A DNA stretch of 64,000 nt from Shigella phage Sf22, in the sequence record MF158045. One strand, written 5' to 3'. How positions within the stretch are numbered: position 1 is the stretch's first letter; every line of letters begins with the position of its first letter. Shown piece by piece: positions 2,688-10,744 of this stretch. The translations under genes were made by a program, and so were the position numbers. The notes under the pieces were generated by a model, which worked only from the letters and a program-made list of their open reading frames with translations, had not been told where the DNA came from and did not search any database.

Positions 2688-5600
2688 ATGGCTACTTTAA
2701 AACAAATACAATTTAAAAGAAGCAAAACCGCAGGAGCACGTCCTGCTGCTTCAGTATTAGCCGAAGGTGAATTGGCTATAAACTTAAAAGATAGAACAAT
2801 TTTTACTAAAGATGATTCAGGAAATATCATTGATCTAGGTATTGCTAAAGGCGGTCAAATTGATGGAAATGTAACTATTGATGGAACTTTACGCGTCAAT
2901 GGACCAATAAACAACTTTGGAAATTTTTCTACAAGTGGTACTATTACGGCAAGTAATATTGTTTCTGCTACAGTATTCAGATCAACATCCGGTTCATTTT
3001 ATACAAGAGCAATAAATGATACTGCAAATGCCCATCTTTGGTTTGAAAATACGAATGGATCGGAGAGAGGGGTTTTATATTCAAAACCACAGTCTGAAAA
3101 TGAAGGCGTAATTACAATGCGCGTTCGCCAAGGAACCGCAGCAGGGGCTCAAAATTCAGAATTTCATTTCATTTCTACTGATGGCGGTATCTTCCAGGCA
3201 CGCAAATTAACTGCTTTAACTTCTATTAGTACACCAACTATTAGTGTTAATTTAATTAATCATGATTCTAAAGCCTTTGGACAATACGATTCACAATCAT
3301 TAGTTCAGTATGTTTATCCTGGAACCGGTGAAACAAATGGTGTAAACTATCTTCGTAAAGTTCGAGCTAAATCAGGTGGAACTATTTACCATGAAATTTG
3401 TACAGCTCAGACTGGGCTAGCTGATGAAGTTTCTTGGTGGACTGGTAATATACCGTTATTTAAACTATACGGTATTCGTAACGACGGTAGAATGATTATT
3501 CGCAATAGCTTGGCCATTGGTACTGTGACGGAAGGGTTTCCGTCAAGCGATTATGGAAATACTGGGGTAATGGGAGATAGGTATTTAGCTCTTGGCGATA
3601 ATGCTTCTGGACTTAAATGGGTTCGTACTGGCGTTATTGACTTAATGGCTAACGGTATTTCTGCGGCGTCTATTATTAATAATGGTATTAACAGTACTAA
3701 AAAATTAATGGTTGGTTATAGTCGAGATTCTGGTTCTACTTGGGATTTCCCAAATAACAACCAAGCAATGTTTACTGCGCGTACCGATGTTGATGGTAAT
3801 AATAACGGTGATGGTCAAACTCATATCGGTTATAGCAGTAATTCTAAAATGTATCACTATTTCCGTGGTACAGGTCGTATGTCCGTTAGTATGGGCGATG
3901 GACTTCTTGTTGAGCCTGGCATTTTAGATATTAAAACTGGTTCAAATTCATTAAATTTGCGTGCTGATGGTACTGTTGCATCTACTCAAGAAGTTAAGCT
4001 TAATAATGGGTTATTCTTTAATAGTAGTTCTTCTAACGCCGGTCTTAAATTTGGCGCTTCTTCTTCTATAAATGGAACTAAGACAATACAATGGAACGCA
4101 GGCACCCGCCCGGGTCAGAACAAAAGCTATGTGACCATGAAAGCATGGGGCAATGCATTTGAGGATAATACTAATAAAAACAGAGAAACTGTATTTGAAT
4201 TAGGCGATGGACAGGGTTGGCATTTTTATTCACAGCGCGTTGCTCCTGCAGCAGGTTCTACTGCCGGTTCTGTTGAATTTGCGATGGCCGGTAGTTTATT
4301 AACTTCTGGTTCTATTACAACAAGATCTTCCCTGAATGCTGATAATGGATTGTCTGTAAATGGACAAGCTAAATTTGGTGGAACGGCTGATGTATTAAGA
4401 ATTTGGAATGCTGAATACGGTGCTATTTTCCGTCGCTCAGAAAGTAATCTTTATATTATACCGACTCCTAAAGATGCTGGAGAATCGGGCGGTATAAGTA
4501 ATCTTAGACCATTGATAATAGAACTGAACACTGGCACAGTTAAAATGTCGCATGATGTTCATTTAGGAGATTCTGGATCTGGTACAGGACTTTTACAAGT
4601 AAGTAATAGTCTTAAAACTATTAAAATGATATGTCCAGTAACTATTAATGAACGCAATGCAGCGCTTACCCTGGATTCTCCTTCATCTTCTTCTGCTAAT
4701 TATTTACAGGGTTCTAAAGCTGGAACTAGATCATGGTACGTTGGTCTTGGCGGCGCTGGAAATGATTTATCTCTTTATAGCCAATCTTATGGACATGGTC
4801 TTGTTATAAGTGATAATTTCACGTCAATCACTAAGCCTCTTAAAGTCGGCAATGCCCAATTAGGAACTGACGGTAATATTACCAATGGTTCAGGAAACTT
4901 TGTCAACTTAAATACCACGTTAAATCGTAAAGTTAATTCTGGATTTATTACTTATGGAGCAACCTCTGGATGGTATAAGTTTGCAACAGTAACAATGCCA
5001 CAATCCACTTCGACGGTCTTCTTTAAAATAGTTGGAGGTTCTGGATTTAATAGCGGATTATTCACACAATGTAATATTGCTGAAATTGTTTTACGTACTA
5101 GTAATGAAAGACCTTCTGACTTAAATGCTGTATTATACACAAGAACAACTGGAATGTATAGCGCAGCATTTAGAAATATTGCAGTTAACAATGTCTCTGG
5201 AAATACATATGACATTTATGTTTATGCTGGAACATATTGTAATCAACTAGTTTGTGAATGGTCATGTACCGAAAATGCTACTGTTAGCGTTATTGGTATT
5301 AACTCATCTACCCAATCACCTGTGGATGCTCTTCCAGATACAGCAGTTGATGGGCAAGTTGCTAATGTTCTTAATAACTTGGTTGATCGTGGTAAAGTTA
5401 AGCGTTATGAAGCCGATTCTGAAATAGCTATTAATAGCCAAACCGGTATTCGTATCAGAAGCAATGCCGATAAAACTGGTTCTGTGGCTACAATGTTACG
5501 AAATGACGGTGGCAGTTTTTATATTCTGTTTACAGATAAAAATGCCACTGATGGCGCAGCAACTGTTAATGGTGATTGGAATAGTAAACGTCCTTTCGCA

Positions 5601-6377
5601 ATTAACTTAACAACCGGCGAAGTGATGATGAATAACGGCATAGCTGTTCGCAGCGCTGCTTTATTCTATAATAGCATAAACGTCAAAGATAATGGTTCTA
5701 TTAACTTTGATAAGTCCGGCGCTAACCCGAGAAACATGCGTATATTCCATGCAGGTGATGGCACTCGTGGTAATCGCATTGAAATTGCTGATGAAACAAA
5801 CTATATTGCTTACTTCCAAAAATTACCTGGTGGTCAAAATCAGGTTTCATTCAATAGTGCTACACTTTCTGGATTAACACAGTGTAATCAATTTGGTGTT
5901 AACACAACAAACGCACTTGGTGGAAACAGTATAACATTTGGTGATACTGATACTGGTATTAAGCAAAATGGCGATGGATTATTAGACATATATGCGAACA
6001 ACGTGCAAGTGTTCCGTTTCCAAAATGGTGATTTGTACTCATATAAAAATATAAATGCTCCAAACGTTTATATTCGTTCTGATATTCGTTTAAAATCTAA
6101 CTTCAAACCTATCGAAAATGCACTTGATAAAGTTGAAAAACTCAATGGTGTCATTTATGATAAAGCTGAATACATCGGTGGAGAGGCAATTGAAACTGAA
6201 GCGGGTATTGTAGCTCAAACGTTACAAGACGTTTTACCAGAAGCCGTCCGTGAAACAGAAGACAGCAAGGGTAATAAAATACTCACTGTTTCTTCTCAAG
6301 CCCAGATTGCTCTTCTGGTTGAAGCTGTGAAAACGCTTTCTTCTCGTGTAAAAGAACTTGAATCTAAACTTATGTAA
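2688..6377 (+). CDS. 37: Long tail fiber distal subunit gp37 (T2-type, with C-terminal chaperone-like segment)
   Basis: 1229 aa, Gly/Ser/Asn/Thr-rich fibrous composition; follows gp36; longer than T4 gp37 (1026 aa) as in T2-type fibers. Confidence 0.9.
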   Translation: MATLKQIQFKRSKTAGARPAASVLAEGELAINLKDRTIFTKDDSGNIIDLGIAKGGQIDGNVTIDGTLRVNGPINNFGNFSTSGTITASNIVSATVFRSTSGSFYTRAINDTANAHLWFENTNGSERGVLYSKPQSENEGVITMRVRQGTAAGAQNSEFHFISTDGGIFQARKLTALTSISTPTISVNLINHDSKAFGQYDSQSLVQYVYPGTGETNGVNYLRKVRAKSGGTIYHEICTAQTGLADEVSWWTGNIPLFKLYGIRNDGRMIIRNSLAIGTVTEGFPSSDYGNTGVMGDRYLALGDNASGLKWVRTGVIDLMANGISAASIINNGINSTKKLMVGYSRDSGSTWDFPNNNQAMFTARTDVDGNNNGDGQTHIGYSSNSKMYHYFRGTGRMSVSMGDGLLVEPGILDIKTGSNSLNLRADGTVASTQEVKLNNGLFFNSSSSNAGLKFGASSSINGTKTIQWNAGTRPGQNKSYVTMKAWGNAFEDNTNKNRETVFELGDGQGWHFYSQRVAPAAGSTAGSVEFAMAGSLLTSGSITTRSSLNADNGLSVNGQAKFGGTADVLRIWNAEYGAIFRRSESNLYIIPTPKDAGESGGISNLRPLIIELNTGTVKMSHDVHLGDSGSGTGLLQVSNSLKTIKMICPVTINERNAALTLDSPSSSSANYLQGSKAGTRSWYVGLGGAGNDLSLYSQSYGHGLVISDNFTSITKPLKVGNAQLGTDGNITNGSGNFVNLNTTLNRKVNSGFITYGATSGWYKFATVTMPQSTSTVFFKIVGGSGFNSGLFTQCNIAEIVLRTSNERPSDLNAVLYTRTTGMYSAAFRNIAVNNVSGNTYDIYVYAGTYCNQLVCEWSCTENATVSVIGINSSTQSPVDALPDTAVDGQVANVLNNLVDRGKVKRYEADSEIAINSQTGIRIRSNADKTGSVATMLRNDGGSFYILFTDKNATDGAATVNGDWNSKRPFAINLTTGEVMMNNGIAVRSAALFYNSINVKDNGSINFDKSGANPRNMRIFHAGDGTRGNRIEIADETNYIAYFQKLPGGQNQVSFNSATLSGLTQCNQFGVNTTNALGGNSITFGDTDTGIKQNGDGLLDIYANNVQVFRFQNGDLYSYKNINAPNVYIRSDIRLKSNFKPIENALDKVEKLNGVIYDKAEYIGGEAIETEAGIVAQTLQDVLPEAVRETEDSKGNKILTVSSQAQIALLVEAVKTLSSRVKELESKLM

Positions 6378-6407: not shown

Positions 6408-7202
6408 ATGGCAATTGTAGGTGTTCCTGGCTGGATTGGTGAATCTGCCGTGAATGAAACTGGACAGCGTTGGATGGATGCTGCGATGAGAGCAGTTCGT
6501 GTTTCAGTTCCTGGTTGGATGAGCTCAATGGCTGGGCAATCTAAAGAAGTATATTATAGCATTGGTGCTAGCAATTCTTACAATAAAGACACACTAATAA
6601 ATTATCTCAAATCTCAAGGTAGTACTCCTGTTGTTGTTACTATTACTGGTAACCTAGTTTCTTCATCTGCAAGGCAACCTTGCTTAGATTTTCCTAGCTC
6701 ATTAACTAATGCTTATGTAACGCTTATTATAAATGGCGGTGTAACAGTATATGGTCGCGGAGGACGCGGCGCGCAAGCGGGAAACCAGGCGGGTGAAGCT
6801 GGTGGTACTGCAATTAACAATGGTATAGGTACTCGTCTACGAATCACTAACAATGGAGCAATCGCTGGCGGTGGTGGTGGTGGCGGCGCCCAATCAACTG
6901 ATAATGGATGGGGAGGTAAATATGTTTCTGGCGGCGGCGGCGGACGTCCTTTCGGAGCTGGTGGTAATAATGGAGCAAAAGCTCCGGGTGCATCAGCATC
7001 TTTAACATCTCCAGGCGCAGGTGGAAAAATGTATTCCGGCGTTGGATACTACGGTGGTGACGGTGGTAATGTTGGTGAACGAGGTAAGGATGCGGTTAGA
7101 TTGAACGGCTATTCGAACTCACCTGGCGCAGCAGGTAAAGCTGTTACTGGTAACGCACCAACATGGACTAAGGTTGGTACAATATATGGTTCAAGAGTAT
7201 AA
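6408..7202 (+). CDS. 38: Receptor-recognising tail fiber adhesin gp38 (T2-type, glycine-rich motifs)
   Basis: 264 aa with several poly-Gly blocks (GGGGGGGAQ, GGGGG) separated by variable segments; immediately downstream of gp37. Confidence 0.85.
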   Translation: MAIVGVPGWIGESAVNETGQRWMDAAMRAVRVSVPGWMSSMAGQSKEVYYSIGASNSYNKDTLINYLKSQGSTPVVVTITGNLVSSSARQPCLDFPSSLTNAYVTLIINGGVTVYGRGGRGAQAGNQAGEAGGTAINNGIGTRLRITNNGAIAGGGGGGGAQSTDNGWGGKYVSGGGGGRPFGAGGNNGAKAPGASASLTSPGAGGKMYSGVGYYGGDGGNVGERGKDAVRLNGYSNSPGAAGKAVTGNAPTWTKVGTIYGSRV

Positions 7203-7891: not shown

Positions 7892-8164
7892 TTATTTGTT
7901 CGTATACATCTCTAGATATCGATATACACCCTCAAAACCCTCGTTGAATTCGTCGATGAGGGTTTTCTTATCTTCTTGAGTTAATTCAGAAACAATTTTA
8001 CGGAATGAATTCTGATTTAATTTTCTACCTTCATGCGTTACTCCAATCTCATTCAGAAATGCAATAAAATTAGCACGATTCTCAACAATATCTTCTCTGG
8101 AAAATTTAATCAAAATAGACGCAACAGTAATAATTTCACGAACTGTATCAATGTTTTTATTCAT
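7892..8164 (-). CDS. asiA: Anti-sigma70 factor AsiA
   Basis: 90 aa, MNKNIDTVREIITVASILIKFSREDIVENRANFIAF matches T4 AsiA as recalled. Confidence 0.95.
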   Translation of the reverse strand: MNKNIDTVREIITVASILIKFSREDIVENRANFIAFLNEIGVTHEGRKLNQNSFRKIVSELTQEDKKTLIDEFNEGFEGVYRYLEMYTNK

Positions 8165-8170
8165 TAACTA

Positions 8171-8329
8171 TACCACTCAATTAGTTGACTTTGTTATAAT
8201 ATCATCAGACGCTTGATTTGTAAACTGGTCTGTGTTATTTTCTTCAAAAATTTTTTCTACGAATTCTTTGAACGACTCACGTTCCTGAGCTACATTATGC
8301 TCAATTACCATTTCAAGATTATGACTCAT
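8171..8329 (-). CDS. Small hypothetical protein (52 aa)
   Basis: Manual minus-strand translation MSHNLEMVIEHNVAQERESFKEF...; start ATG overlaps arn stop (ATGA). Not in ORF track (under 60 aa). Confidence 0.4.
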
Positions 8330-8604
8330 TCGAAATAATCTTCAATTTCGTAATCATGGACATAAATCATTATAGTTTTTAATACATCATCGATACTTTT
8401 TCCTGGAGCTGGAATTACGTAAAAATATCCTGCTTTTGAGAGGTCTTTATAAGTTCCAATCAAGAAATCATTATTCTCGAGATGTAGTTCTTCAACTAAT
8501 TCATTGACAATTGAGTGGTATAAATTTGGTAGAAACTTATATAGCTTTTCTAGAATATCAATTTTGATTGTATATTGAACCACGGATTGAGAATCAATAA
8601 TCAT
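8326..8604 (-). CDS. arn: Anti-restriction nuclease Arn (McrBC inhibitor)
   Basis: 92 aa, position between asiA and motA and sequence consistent with T4 Arn. Confidence 0.85.
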   Translation of the reverse strand: MIIDSQSVVQYTIKIDILEKLYKFLPNLYHSIVNELVEELHLENNDFLIGTYKDLSKAGYFYVIPAPGKSIDDVLKTIMIYVHDYEIEDYFE

Positions 8605-8687
8605 AGACCTTCCCCTTATGTTTCTGTTTGCGATTAGATTCTTTAAACGCTTTCTTCTTATCCTTATGAACAGAAGCTTTATTAAAA

Positions 8688-8906
8688 TTATGTTTTGCGA
8701 CTAAATTGTTCATAGTGCTGAATTACCTCTCTTAAACATTTGCGTGTGAATGAAAACTTTTTAGCTACACCACATTCAAATATATGTTCTCTTAAATCAC
8801 GTGTATCGGTATATCCCATCTCAACAATAAAATGCCGTATTAAATTTTTATCTTTATCATTGAGAGAATTAAAATAGTCAGATTTTGAATTAATTTCCCT
8901 GGCCAA
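8688..8906 (-). CDS. Hypothetical protein (72 aa)
   Basis: ORF track; in arn-motA accessory cluster. Confidence 0.5.
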   Translation of the reverse strand: MAREINSKSDYFNSLNDKDKNLIRHFIVEMGYTDTRDLREHIFECGVAKKFSFTRKCLREVIQHYEQFSRKT

Positions 8907-9186
8907 ATTGAATCACCTTCAGTTGACGTTTTAATTCTTTTATCATTTCTTCGTTCATCGCAATATAAAGATCGCGTAAAGCAGGTTTTAGCATTCCATT
9001 TATTGGAGAACTAAATGGACATACATAATCTTTTCCTACGAGCTTTTTGGTGAATTCCATATTACAGAACTTAAATCCCGGTTCATTGGCATAAATTCCC
9101 CAATTAGTTGACATCATTTTATTGGCATATTCCAATGCCTGGATTTGATTCATAATTCCATCAATTTGAAACTTTTTAATATTCAT
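8890..9186 (-). CDS. Hypothetical protein (98 aa)
   Basis: ORF track; tightly packed with neighbours on minus strand. Confidence 0.5.
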   Translation of the reverse strand: MNIKKFQIDGIMNQIQALEYANKMMSTNWGIYANEPGFKFCNMEFTKKLVGKDYVCPFSSPINGMLKPALRDLYIAMNEEMIKELKRQLKVIQFGQGN

Positions 9187-9647
9187 TAGTAAAGGTCCTC
9201 AGAGTAAAGTTCTTTTTCACTACCACCGCGTTCAATACGTACTTGTCCGGCGTAAGTTGCAATAATCATTGCTTCTTCACGTGTCCAATAATTACTATAT
9301 TGGTCAATAAACCCTTGGTCATCATCACAAACTTGCTGAGTAACTAATTGAGGTTTAACTACATCTAAAACTTCTGCCATATCTTTAGAATAATGACGAG
9401 CACCTGGAATAATAAGAGTTCGTCCATCTTTTAATTTAAAACGGTTGGCTGCGCAAACAATTCGTCGTTGATATTTTTGATTTTCGTCCCAATATGCAGA
9501 CTGCCAACAGATTTCAGGAACTTCTTTCAGAATATCTTCTTCTGTGCATTTATAACCATGCGCTTTAAATTTTTCAACAAGACTTTCTGGAGTCTCACGA
9601 GATAAAGGAACATTCAACATTTTTAAACGATTAATAAATGGGTTCAT
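9186..9647 (-). CDS. Hypothetical protein (153 aa)
   Basis: ORF track; stop/start overlap with neighbours. Confidence 0.55.
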
Positions 9648-9973
9648 TTAAACCATCCTTTAATACGCTGCCACAAAGTTTTCTGTTGAGCTTTGTTAAC
9701 ACCAATTGAGCGAATAACTGGTTGAGATTCCTGGAATTCTTTATAATCAGCAAGGTAAATTTCATAAGCCGCTTGAACAAAAGTACTGATCGCTGCCATA
9801 AAGTTCTTGCGAATTCCCATAGAGGCTTCAGAACCGCCACGGATGATTAAATATTTACCAGTCTTAATCTTTACGATACTTCCAAGATAAGCTCCATGGT
9901 ACCAGATATCCCAACCCTCTTGAGTAGGTTCTGCACAACGACGAAGTTCATTGATAATTTCTAACTTGTTCAT
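9644..9973 (-). CDS. Hypothetical protein (109 aa)
   Basis: ORF track; 4-nt overlap with downstream ORF. Confidence 0.55.
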
Positions 9974-9983
9974 TATTTATTCC

Positions 9984-10619
9984 TCACAGTTCAGATGCTA
10001 CAGTGATTACAGCTTCAATGTTTTCTGCTGAACGTTTAATGTCAAGATACACATTACCGTTTTTAGCGATTTTACATGACATTCCGATATCAGTAAATTT
10101 CTGAATATGATGTTCCATCATTTTGTATCCAAAAATTCGCATATTTCCATTATTGTTAATTTCAAAATTACGAATTCCGTGAGTGCGTTTTTCTAAAATA
10201 GCGAGATAGTTACTGCGATAAGTTTCAACCTTTTTAAGAACAAATCCATTTTCATCTAAAAGTTTTAACATGAAGTCTTTATCTTCTTCCATATCAGAAG
10301 TAATCTCACGAGATTTACGAGTTGCTCGTTTTTTCAGCAGTTCCGGAGCATTTTCCTGTGCGTATAAAGTTGCTGCGTTTGAAATAATATCCTGAGCTTC
10401 ACCAGTAATGATTAATCCATCACCAGATTTCTCTACCAGGCCCTTTTTAATCAATACACCAATATTACTATTAACTACTGCGTTACCTAAATCTGGATGC
10501 ACCTCACGAACTTCTGCAGCTGTAATGAAATCTTTCTTAGCAATAGTAATTAAAATCGCAGCAGTTTTTTCATTCAGAACATCGTTAGAAGCTTTGATGA
10601 TGTAAGTTACTTTAGACAT
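9984..10619 (-). CDS. motA: Middle transcription activator MotA
   Basis: 211 aa, N-terminus MSKVTYIIKASNDVLNEKTAAILITIAKKDFITAAEVREVHPDLGN matches T4 MotA as recalled. Confidence 0.95.
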   Translation of the reverse strand: MSKVTYIIKASNDVLNEKTAAILITIAKKDFITAAEVREVHPDLGNAVVNSNIGVLIKKGLVEKSGDGLIITGEAQDIISNAATLYAQENAPELLKKRATRKSREITSDMEEDKDFMLKLLDENGFVLKKVETYRSNYLAILEKRTHGIRNFEINNNGNMRIFGYKMMEHHIQKFTDIGMSCKIAKNGNVYLDIKRSAENIEAVITVASEL

Positions 10620-10660: not shown

Positions 10661-10690
10661 ATAGTACCACAGTATGCTTTGGTTGTAAAC
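10661..10690 (-). promoter_or_regulatory. T4-type early promoter upstream of motA
   Basis: Minus strand GTTTAC, 18-nt spacer, TACTAT. Confidence 0.65.
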
Positions 10691-10699
10691 CGTTTTGTG

Positions 10700-10739
10700 A
10701 AAAAAATTTAAAATAAAAAGGGAGAGCCGAGGCTCTCCC
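10700..10739 (-). terminator. Intrinsic terminator-like hairpin downstream of gene 52 cluster
   Basis: Minus strand GGGAGAGCC-tc-GGCTCTCCC followed by U-rich tract; lies just upstream of the motA promoter. Confidence 0.6.
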
Positions 10740-10744
10740 TAAAA

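Follow-up and report, generated by a model that had tools for sequence, protein, structure and literature searches.

The arn gene cluster of Shigella phage Sf22 combines a conserved core beside motA with a variable cargo slot beside asiA

What are the small, tightly packed genes between motA and asiA of Shigella phage Sf22, and do they belong together? The question arises from an initial annotation of a 64,000-nucleotide (nt) stretch of this genome (MF158045; hereafter the window, to which all coordinates refer), which described an accessory island of uncharacterised open reading frames (ORFs) at this place. These genes make up the arn gene cluster, and the phage that carries them is T4-like (Tequatrovirus). 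The order arn.4-arn.3-arn.2-arn.1-arn-asiA.1, on one strand and between motA and asiA, is that of the T-even arn cluster, families of this cluster are matched in PHROGs at E 1e-37 to 1e-73, and the annotations of Enterobacteria phage Kha5h, T4 and T2 agree gene for gene with the window ORFs. The 3.3-kb stretch around the cluster has 99.5% DNA identity to Kha5h and 97-99% identity to many further Tequatrovirus genomes (844 phage records matched), and the T4 (NC_000866) and T2 (NC_054931) operons contain the same genes in the same order, with 87-100% protein identity (to T4, by tblastn). The cluster has been described before: arn.1-arn.4 and asiA.1 owe their names to the annotation of the T4 genome (NC_000866), which lists all of them as hypothetical, and the genes are the subject of a 2026 preprint on T2 (10.64898/2026.06.19.733364), which states the functions of Arn.1-4 to be unknown. 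In the searchable literature, that preprint and the CRISPRi-ART tables considered below were all that was found on arn.1-4, asiA.1, the Pfam family PF26092 and PHIKZ245. Our reading, which we hold with moderate confidence as a whole, is that this is a conserved but dispensable cluster made of a core and a cargo slot, expressed as one early/middle mRNA, whose products act as small host-directed effectors. Its genes, from motA to asiA, are as follows, with product lengths in amino acids (aa).

motA, 9984-10619, minus strand, flanking gene.
arn.4, 9644-9973, minus strand, 109 aa; ATG start with a GAGGA Shine-Dalgarno sequence, intact form.
arn.3, 9186-9647, minus strand, 153 aa.
arn.2, 8890-9186, minus strand, 98 aa.
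arn.1, 8688-8906, minus strand, 72 aa; TTG start at 8906-8904.
Unnamed DUF7230 gene (the 39-aa gene), 8594-8713, minus strand, 39 aa.
arn, 8326-8604, minus strand, 92 aa; McrBC inhibitor and DNA mimic.
asiA.1, 8177-8329, minus strand, 50 aa.
asiA, 7892-8164, minus strand, flanking gene.

The dense packing of minus-strand ORFs that first drew attention to the interval is real, as seven co-oriented genes occupy 8177-9973 with zero intergenic bases between 9973 and 8177. Consecutive genes overlap throughout, by ATGA at arn.4/arn.3 and at arn/asiA.1, by TAATG at arn.3/arn.2, by 17 nt at arn.2/arn.1, by 26 nt at arn.1/39-aa gene and by 11 nt at 39-aa gene/arn, and these overlapping stops and starts suggest translational coupling. 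Several details of the initial annotation need correction. Its count of at least five ORFs missed the 39-aa DUF7230 gene, and its 52-aa ORF is the 50-aa asiA.1, the TGA at 8177-8179 having been read through to a TAG at 8171-8173. It placed the ORFs beside arn, and all of them between arn and motA; arn itself lies inside the interval and matches the Pfam family DM_Arn (PF22134) at E 4e-54, with 181 bits against a cut-off of 26, as well as phrog_3151, and asiA.1 sits between asiA and arn.

To describe how the cluster varies, 39 T4-like loci were compared. The loci were found using Arn.3 as the query, so that the frequency of arn.3 itself is uninformative, and the other genes were scored by tblastn, with the following results.

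arn.4: 39 of 39 T4-like loci.
39-aa gene: 39 of 39 T4-like loci.
arn.2: 31 of 39 T4-like loci.
arn.1: 21 of 39 T4-like loci.
arn: 7 of 39 T4-like loci.
asiA.1: 7 of 39 T4-like loci.

These counts resolve the cluster into two parts. A conserved core of arn.4, arn.3 and the 39-aa gene, usually accompanied by arn.2 and arn.1, lies beside motA, and a variable cargo slot, here holding arn and asiA.1, lies beside asiA. Across the T4-like loci the distance from the 39-aa gene to asiA ranges from 219 to 1,107 nt, and elsewhere the slot is filled by other small genes, among them divergent Arn-like proteins; one such Arn-like slot family, phrog_31709, also matches the Arn PHROG at 1.7e-9. Variable slots that carry anti-defence or other accessory genes between conserved flanking genes are a known feature of phage genomes. 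The stretch between the 39-aa gene and asiA, with small genes that differ from phage to phage, corresponds to this concept, whereas arn.4, arn.3 and the 39-aa gene are fixed, unlike accessory cargo. The gene after which the cluster is named therefore belongs to the cargo, and arn is, by presence in loci, the least conserved member of the cluster and not its defining one. The term accessory island consequently fits only part of the interval, namely the variable slot on the asiA side, as opposed to arn.4 and the 39-aa gene; the first interpretation was reasonable but unproven, and the conservation pattern bears it out in part.

Two observations were made in passing on the variation among these loci. 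In three of them, from Citrobacter/Enterobacter-type T4-like phages (L030, L034 and L036, at about 5200-6250), the slot holds a 128-aa protein of phrog_12830, residues 90-119 of which match the N-terminus of the Gp23 major capsid protein (PF07068 positions 2-31, E 1.6e-4), and this protein could be a candidate capsid-derived decoy. In addition, locus L009 is 93-100% identical to the window from arn.2 to asiA and only 74-77% identical in arn.4/arn.3 and 51% in motA, and locus L007 has the reverse pattern; such mosaic identity implies recombination breakpoints inside the cluster.

Short ORFs in AT-rich DNA may arise by chance, and this explanation was considered for asiA.1, the 39-aa ORF and the N-terminal part of arn.1. 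All three are short, the 39-aa ORF and the long form of arn.1 are unannotated in T4, and asiA.1 is confined to near-identical relatives. The ratio of nonsynonymous to synonymous substitution rates (dN/dS) was determined by the Nei-Gojobori method. Sequences for this came from 79 related viral loci, and those of the window and of the Kha5h and T4 reference regions were included. The values, which are approximate, are 0.035 for arn, 0.12 for the 39-aa gene, 0.14 for asiA.1 (estimated from few, closely related sequences with few substitutions), 0.22 for arn.1, 0.32 for arn.3, 0.34 for arn.4 and, as the maximum among the seven, 0.42 for arn.2; the known neighbours asiA and motA give 0.24 and 0.28, respectively. 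Codons 2-29 of arn.1, the stretch that a chance frame would have to explain, give 0.24. Moreover, the proteins are conserved in phages whose DNA has diverged beyond recognition, Pfam and PHROG families cover these ORFs, and the gene order is kept down to 33% MotA identity. An origin of these frames by chance is thus already close to refuted, and as judged from their pattern of substitution all seven ORFs are real protein-coding genes under purifying selection.

The same genes appear to be dispensable in the laboratory. In the T4 screen by CRISPR interference through antisense RNA-targeting (CRISPRi-ART; PMC11879866, supplementary file 15), asiA.1, arn, arn.1, arn.2, arn.3 and arn.4 were all scored 'Not Fit', which indicates that the six annotated T4 genes can be dispensed with in that single laboratory host. 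The state of arn.4 in laboratory strains agrees with this result. An intact gene, encoding a protein of 107-120 aa, is present in the window, in Kha5h and in more than 30 other relatives. In contrast, the two reference genomes carry independent lesions: in T4 the start codon reads ATA instead of ATG (L002, 3131-3457), and in T2 codons 27-28 have lost 2 nt (L094, 1000-1327). In each record, annotation is limited to the final 68 codons. The Arn.4 family is restricted to T4-like phages and comprises 53 clusters in a set of 5.8 billion proteins. An amphipathic membrane anchor was considered for its conserved C-terminus and rejected, as the hydrophobic moment of this segment falls outside the top five 11-residue windows of the protein.

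Is any function indicated by homology? Scans of all ORFs against Pfam, NCBIfam and PADLOC matched only Arn, AsiA, MotA and DUF7230, and when PHROGs, PDB sequences and two fold searches are included, Arn is the only cluster protein with homology to a protein of known function. PDB sequence searches with single sequences of Arn.2, Arn.3 and Arn.4, and with profiles of the 39-aa protein and Arn.1, returned no significant match, and for the ORFs other than arn no similarity in sequence or fold to a known anti-defence or defence family was found in Pfam, PHROGs, PADLOC, NCBIfam or the PDB. The initial annotation had recognised none of the ORFs. They can in fact be identified, as T4 asiA.1 and arn.1-arn.4, and profile searches and two fold searches of the kind that it proposed reveal no housekeeping or other known-function homology for the uncharacterised ORFs.

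Arn is the only characterised gene product in the interval, being a DNA-mimic inhibitor of McrBC restriction (10.64898/2026.06.19.733364). It is encoded among the uncharacterised genes and co-transcribed with them, and like AsiA.1 it is small and acidic, yet none of the other six cluster proteins is related to it: the DM_Arn profile matches no other cluster ORF, and an all-against-all profile comparison (hhalign) found the island families to be unrelated to MotA, AsiA and Arn. Both a crystal structure of Arn and its binding to H-NS are on record. Evidence for anti-defence activity exists for arn only among the genes of the cluster. Many GenBank and UniRef records nevertheless name Arn.1, Arn.3 and Arn.4 'anti-restriction nucleases', and these database names are all that speaks for a nuclease function. 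The label has been carried over from arn, in which 'anti restriction nuclease' denotes an inhibitor of a nuclease; the three proteins are unrelated to Arn (hhalign probability <1%) and match no nuclease family or fold, and we regard a nuclease function as highly improbable.

We next turn to how the cluster would be expressed, for which the following signals are relevant.

10719-10740, minus strand, terminator-like hairpin upstream of motA, where a terminator is annotated in Kha5h.
10661-10689, minus strand, sigma-70-like promoter upstream of motA, after the hairpin.
8196-8224, minus strand, sigma-70-like promoter TTTACA-17 nt-TATTAT with a TG, inside asiA.1 and upstream of asiA; 10/12 consensus, a pattern match only.

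The promoter before motA is likely the 5' limit of a transcription unit that extends from motA to asiA, and no terminator-like site was found on the minus strand from 10660 to 8164. Together, a promoter before motA and the lack of a terminator before asiA point to a single polycistronic mRNA. A search of both strands of the whole window with Rfam returned no family at gathering score. In T2, in a study using RNA sequencing (RNA-seq) and RNA interaction by ligation and sequencing (RIL-seq), arn.4-arn.3-arn.2-arn.1-arn are treated as one abundant transcript (10.64898/2026.06.19.733364), so that the initial view of an expressed neighbourhood containing an anti-restriction gene is supported. From these signals and the T2 data, we infer that the cluster genes would be expressed as one polycistronic early/middle mRNA, and that the host small RNA (sRNA) ArcZ would pair with it at the arn.2/arn.1 junction.

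This junction is where our comparison departs most from the existing annotation. The T4, T2 and Kha5h records annotate arn.1 as its last 43 codons only, beginning at an ATG at 8819, but the frame upstream of this ATG is open back to the TTG at 8906. The three sequence features that bear on the start of the gene and its regulation are listed here.

8913-8919, minus strand, AAGGTGA, Shine-Dalgarno sequence of arn.1 as read from the sequence, with a 6-nt spacer to the TTG.
8893-8902, minus strand, CCAGGGAAAT, ArcZ pairing site and perfect complement of ArcZ AUUUCCCUGG, equal to arn.2 nt +285..+294.
8831-8835, minus strand, GCATT, within arn.1 codons R24-H25-F26 and 11 nt upstream of the ATG at 8819; in T2 this motif is the proposed RNase E site.

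The same GAAGGTGA stands upstream of an ATG start in a related locus (L023), and where the window has the TTG, distant T4-like phages start their Arn.1 homologue with ATG or GTG. These phages share the N-terminal sequence xSKxDYFNSLNxxxKxxIxxFIxE-L/M-GY, and in their proteins a leucine replaces the internal methionine of T4, which makes the short form of Arn.1 impossible there. Ten of the 24 invariant alignment columns of Arn.1 fall within residues 1-29, T2 differs from the window four times in the upstream stretch, each time synonymously in the long frame, and the matching PHROG, phrog_4452, is itself a 72-aa family. This comparison supports a true arn.1 of 72 codons starting at TTG 8906 rather than one of 43. 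Within the protein, an alignment of 10 sequences with identities as low as 45% shows H41, C45, C57 and H64 to be invariant. These residues probably form a metal site of the H/C/C/H type in this small protein, for which a profile search returned no relative among PDB sequences.

The longer gene model alters the meaning of the regulatory sites. The T2 preprint reports that ArcZ pairs with arn.2 nt +285..+294 and proposes, with reporter assays for ArcZ and RNase E in T2, that this pairing guards the arn transcript against RNase E at a GCAUU in a '70-nt intergenic region' before arn.1 (10.64898/2026.06.19.733364). Both the pairing site and the cleavage motif of this protection scheme are present in the window, at the same positions as in T4 and T2, and the ArcZ-complementary 10-mer, which is identical in T2 and T4, occurs once in the 64-kb window compared with 0.12 occurrences expected by chance. 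Of 5,426 complete E. coli genomes, 5,417 contain the ArcZ sequence at 100% identity. Pairing of ArcZ with the transcript was also scanned with RNAduplex, which ignores intramolecular structure and gave no useful information. In contrast to the published scheme, CCAGGGAAAT forms not only the last codons of arn.2 but also codons 2-5 of arn.1, and the 'RNase E site' lies at codons 24-26. If arn.1 has 72 codons, the '70-nt intergenic region' would be coding, the ArcZ site would fall in the ribosome-binding window of this gene, at a distance of 10 nt downstream from the Shine-Dalgarno sequence, and the GCAUU-to-GCAGG mutation would also produce the substitutions H25Q and F26V, the latter at a residue that is invariant in Arn.1. 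Pairing of ArcZ over the arn.1 start region would then probably affect arn.1 translation as well as access of RNase E. The published T2 constructs would in that case mix effects on the RNA with effects on the Arn.1 protein and its translation.

Of the proteins in the interval, Arn.3 yields the most information. It consists of a T4-specific helical N-terminal extension (approximately residues 1-43) and a conserved core of some 95-110 aa running to the C-terminus (LYSEDLY); pared down to its minimal unit, the domain measures 83-100 aa, and in many phages it makes up the entire protein. A word-indexed search with Arn.3 retrieved 156 clusters, all with the precomputed Pfam assignment PF26092, and an exhaustive profile search of 1.84 billion cluster representatives retrieved 3,183 at E<=1e-3 and 1,281 at E<=1e-10. 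The family thus amounts to some 3,200 clusters at 50% identity and is found in about 3% of cultured phage genomes (1,581 of 50,697 by tblastn). Its carriers include T4-like, rV5-like (~145 kb) and Vi1-like (~157 kb) phages, jumbo phages including phiKZ, and a few siphoviruses. It is nearly restricted to phages, as it occurs in only 2 of 72,556 plasmids, and a narrow scan of 185,579 species-representative bacterial genomes gave 12 loci, four of the five inspected being located among phage genes. The phiKZ protein PHIKZ245 (AF399011, 239315-239590) is a member, with 37% identity to a minimal-domain protein (E 4e-5), and the family thereby spans T4-like and nucleus-forming jumbo phages.

The conservation of Arn.3 is concentrated in polar residues. 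In window numbering, R84-H85, Q111-G112-F113-x-D115, R123, Q135, S149-E150 and Y153 are invariant or nearly so, and in nearly all of the 150 matches listed the protein stops where the domain does, on the motif L-F/Y-S-E-x-L-Y. Since these residues are kept in phages of very different hosts, an enzyme or a binder of a small ligand fits better than a binder of a host-specific protein, and on the strength of this conservation Arn.3 most likely either is an enzyme or binds a small ligand. A pocket would be formed by the R-H, QGFxD, R, Q and C-terminal SExLY residues, and the target of Arn.3 is probably a nucleotide-like host molecule or immune signalling. The predicted structural model is confident, and Foldseek identified no structural neighbour of it in the PDB; against predicted viral structures, the same search recovered Arn.3 family members in many phages. 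We tentatively propose that the domain represents a new class of phage effector, an enzyme or signal sponge with a fold absent from the PDB and an active site composed of R84-H85, Q111-G-F-x-D115, R123, Q135 and the C-terminal S-E-x-L-Y, directed against a widespread host process or immune signal. A narrower alternative is that Arn.3 is a sponge and not an enzyme, an oligomer that sequesters a nucleotide-derived immune signal in the manner of Tad1, Tad2 and Acb2. This would suit a small (~90 aa), near phage-exclusive domain with conserved Arg, His, Gln, Tyr and Asp residues that recurs, within arrays of small early genes, across many phage lineages unrelated to each other; however, the invariant R-H pair, the acidic residue and the exact C-terminus fit catalysis at least as well, and we consider the sponge improbable.

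Other assignments for Arn.3 were also examined. A 2H phosphoesterase such as Acb1 was rejected, as such enzymes require two H-x-T/S-x motifs and Arn.3 has a single conserved histidine (R84-H85), followed two positions later by S, D or C in different members, and no fold match was obtained. A search of 146 diverse members against a local copy of Pfam, one lacking PF26092, matched no LPD or other model. Foldseek places a candidate Arn.3-like module in three proteins of uncultured phages (A0A6J5LI71, A0A6J5LG11 and A0A6J5SNR6; 767-1,354 aa) whose names refer to polyvalent-protein domains, with weak matches (E 7e-3 to 0.1, probability 0.97-1.0, 24-25% identity over ~95 columns). Several polyvalent-protein domains (Iyer et al. 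2017, PMC5512222) resemble Arn.3 in having enzyme-like conserved polar residues and in occurring as stand-alone proteins, but unlike polyvalent proteins the Arn.3 domain is located at the extreme C-terminus of a small protein in nearly all members listed.

The remaining products are less distinctive. The 39-aa gene matches Pfam DUF7230 (E 1e-11) and phrog_1359 (E 5e-23), overlaps both arn.1 at its end and arn at its start, and is conserved more widely than arn itself; T4 carries a 100% identical copy that is left unannotated, and no paralogue was found in the window. The comparison adds two features to the T4 and T2 annotation, namely this gene and the 72-aa form of Arn.1. The peptide is very basic (isoelectric point (pI) 10.2, 12 K+R), with V5-A6-K7, F10-N11 and H16-K17 invariant and R28-K29 and H32-K33-G34 nearly so, and it is probably a nucleic-acid-binding polycation. 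A suspected resemblance to the ribosome rescue factor ArfA was pursued and discarded, as a profile search of PDB sequences was empty at E<=10 and hhalign against the verified E. coli ArfA gave a probability of 0.3%. Arn.2 (phrog_1844, E 7e-51) looks mostly helical with a variable middle, and the 3' end of its gene holds the ArcZ pairing site described for T2. AsiA.1 is acidic (pI 4.4), matches phrog_3762 at E 1e-37 and is present only in close Tequatrovirus relatives.

What, then, do the core and the cargo do? Most likely, the uncharacterised genes encode small effectors that are directed at the host and made early in infection, and for those in the cargo slot an anti-defence role is plausible. 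A serious rival for the core is a function within the phage's own programme of gene expression. It holds that arn.4, arn.3 and the 39-aa gene, perhaps with arn.1 and arn.2, tune phage gene expression, for example through the AsiA/MotA switch or the control of mRNA and translation. Such a role would explain why the core is locked between motA and asiA, every one of the 39 T4-like loci having arn.4 and the 39-aa gene in constant order beside motA. It also accords with the restriction of the Arn.4 family to T4-like phages, with the properties of the basic Arn.1 with its four invariant H/C residues and of the 39-aa polycation, both of which are compatible with nucleic-acid binding, and with the sRNA and RNase E control to which the cluster itself is subject. 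On the other hand, all of the genes scored in T4 CRISPRi-ART were 'Not Fit' (PMC11879866), arn.4 is broken in the T4 and T2 references without obvious consequence, and no profile similarity to MotA or AsiA was detected (hhalign probability <4%). Furthermore, Arn.3 is common in phages that lack MotA and AsiA, including rV5-like, Vi1-like and phiKZ-like phages and some siphoviruses. On balance, we think a role of the core in phage expression rather unlikely.

The reading that we favour, small host-directed effectors encoded by a dispensable core and cargo, has to be set against several observations that weigh on the other side. Direct functional evidence is limited to arn among the cluster genes. 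Known anti-defence cargo is usually patchy, not universal, across related loci, and the presence of arn.4 and the 39-aa gene in every T4-like locus is unlike such cargo and fits a core phage role. A simple scan found no MotA-box middle promoter, which is a weak negative, and the preprint calls the cluster middle. Many pairs of sequences are saturated in dS, which is why the dN/dS values are approximate, and the Arn.4 model was confident in only one of five prediction runs. For Arn.3, the matches to polyvalent proteins are weak, no recurrent partner gene was found in 39 non-T4 phage loci, and the N-terminal fusion partners in Arn.3-domain proteins of 244-434 aa contain no Pfam domain, so that context gives no hint of its substrate.

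Two further features were observed near the cluster. A 14-bp terminator-like hairpin at 7934-7966 on the plus strand lies 43 nt downstream of the stop codon of t, inside the asiA coding sequence on the opposite strand. Upstream of the holin gene t, 6408-7202 on the plus strand encodes a 264-aa glycine-rich protein that is a gp38 adhesin of the T2/K3 type and not a gp38 chaperone of the T4 type, which implies T2-style receptor recognition by the phage.

As stated, the finding that the interval is an arn cluster is an ordinary one, since these are named T4 genes already treated as an operon. Its consequences lie in the individual genes. The corrected arn.1 model changes how the ArcZ and RNase E experiments in T2 are to be read. 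Studies of arn.4 should use a wild isolate such as Sf22, as the copies in laboratory T4 and T2 are damaged. Finally, Arn.3, which combines a very large phage-only family, enzyme-like conservation and a confident model that has no structural relative, is an attractive target for experiment.

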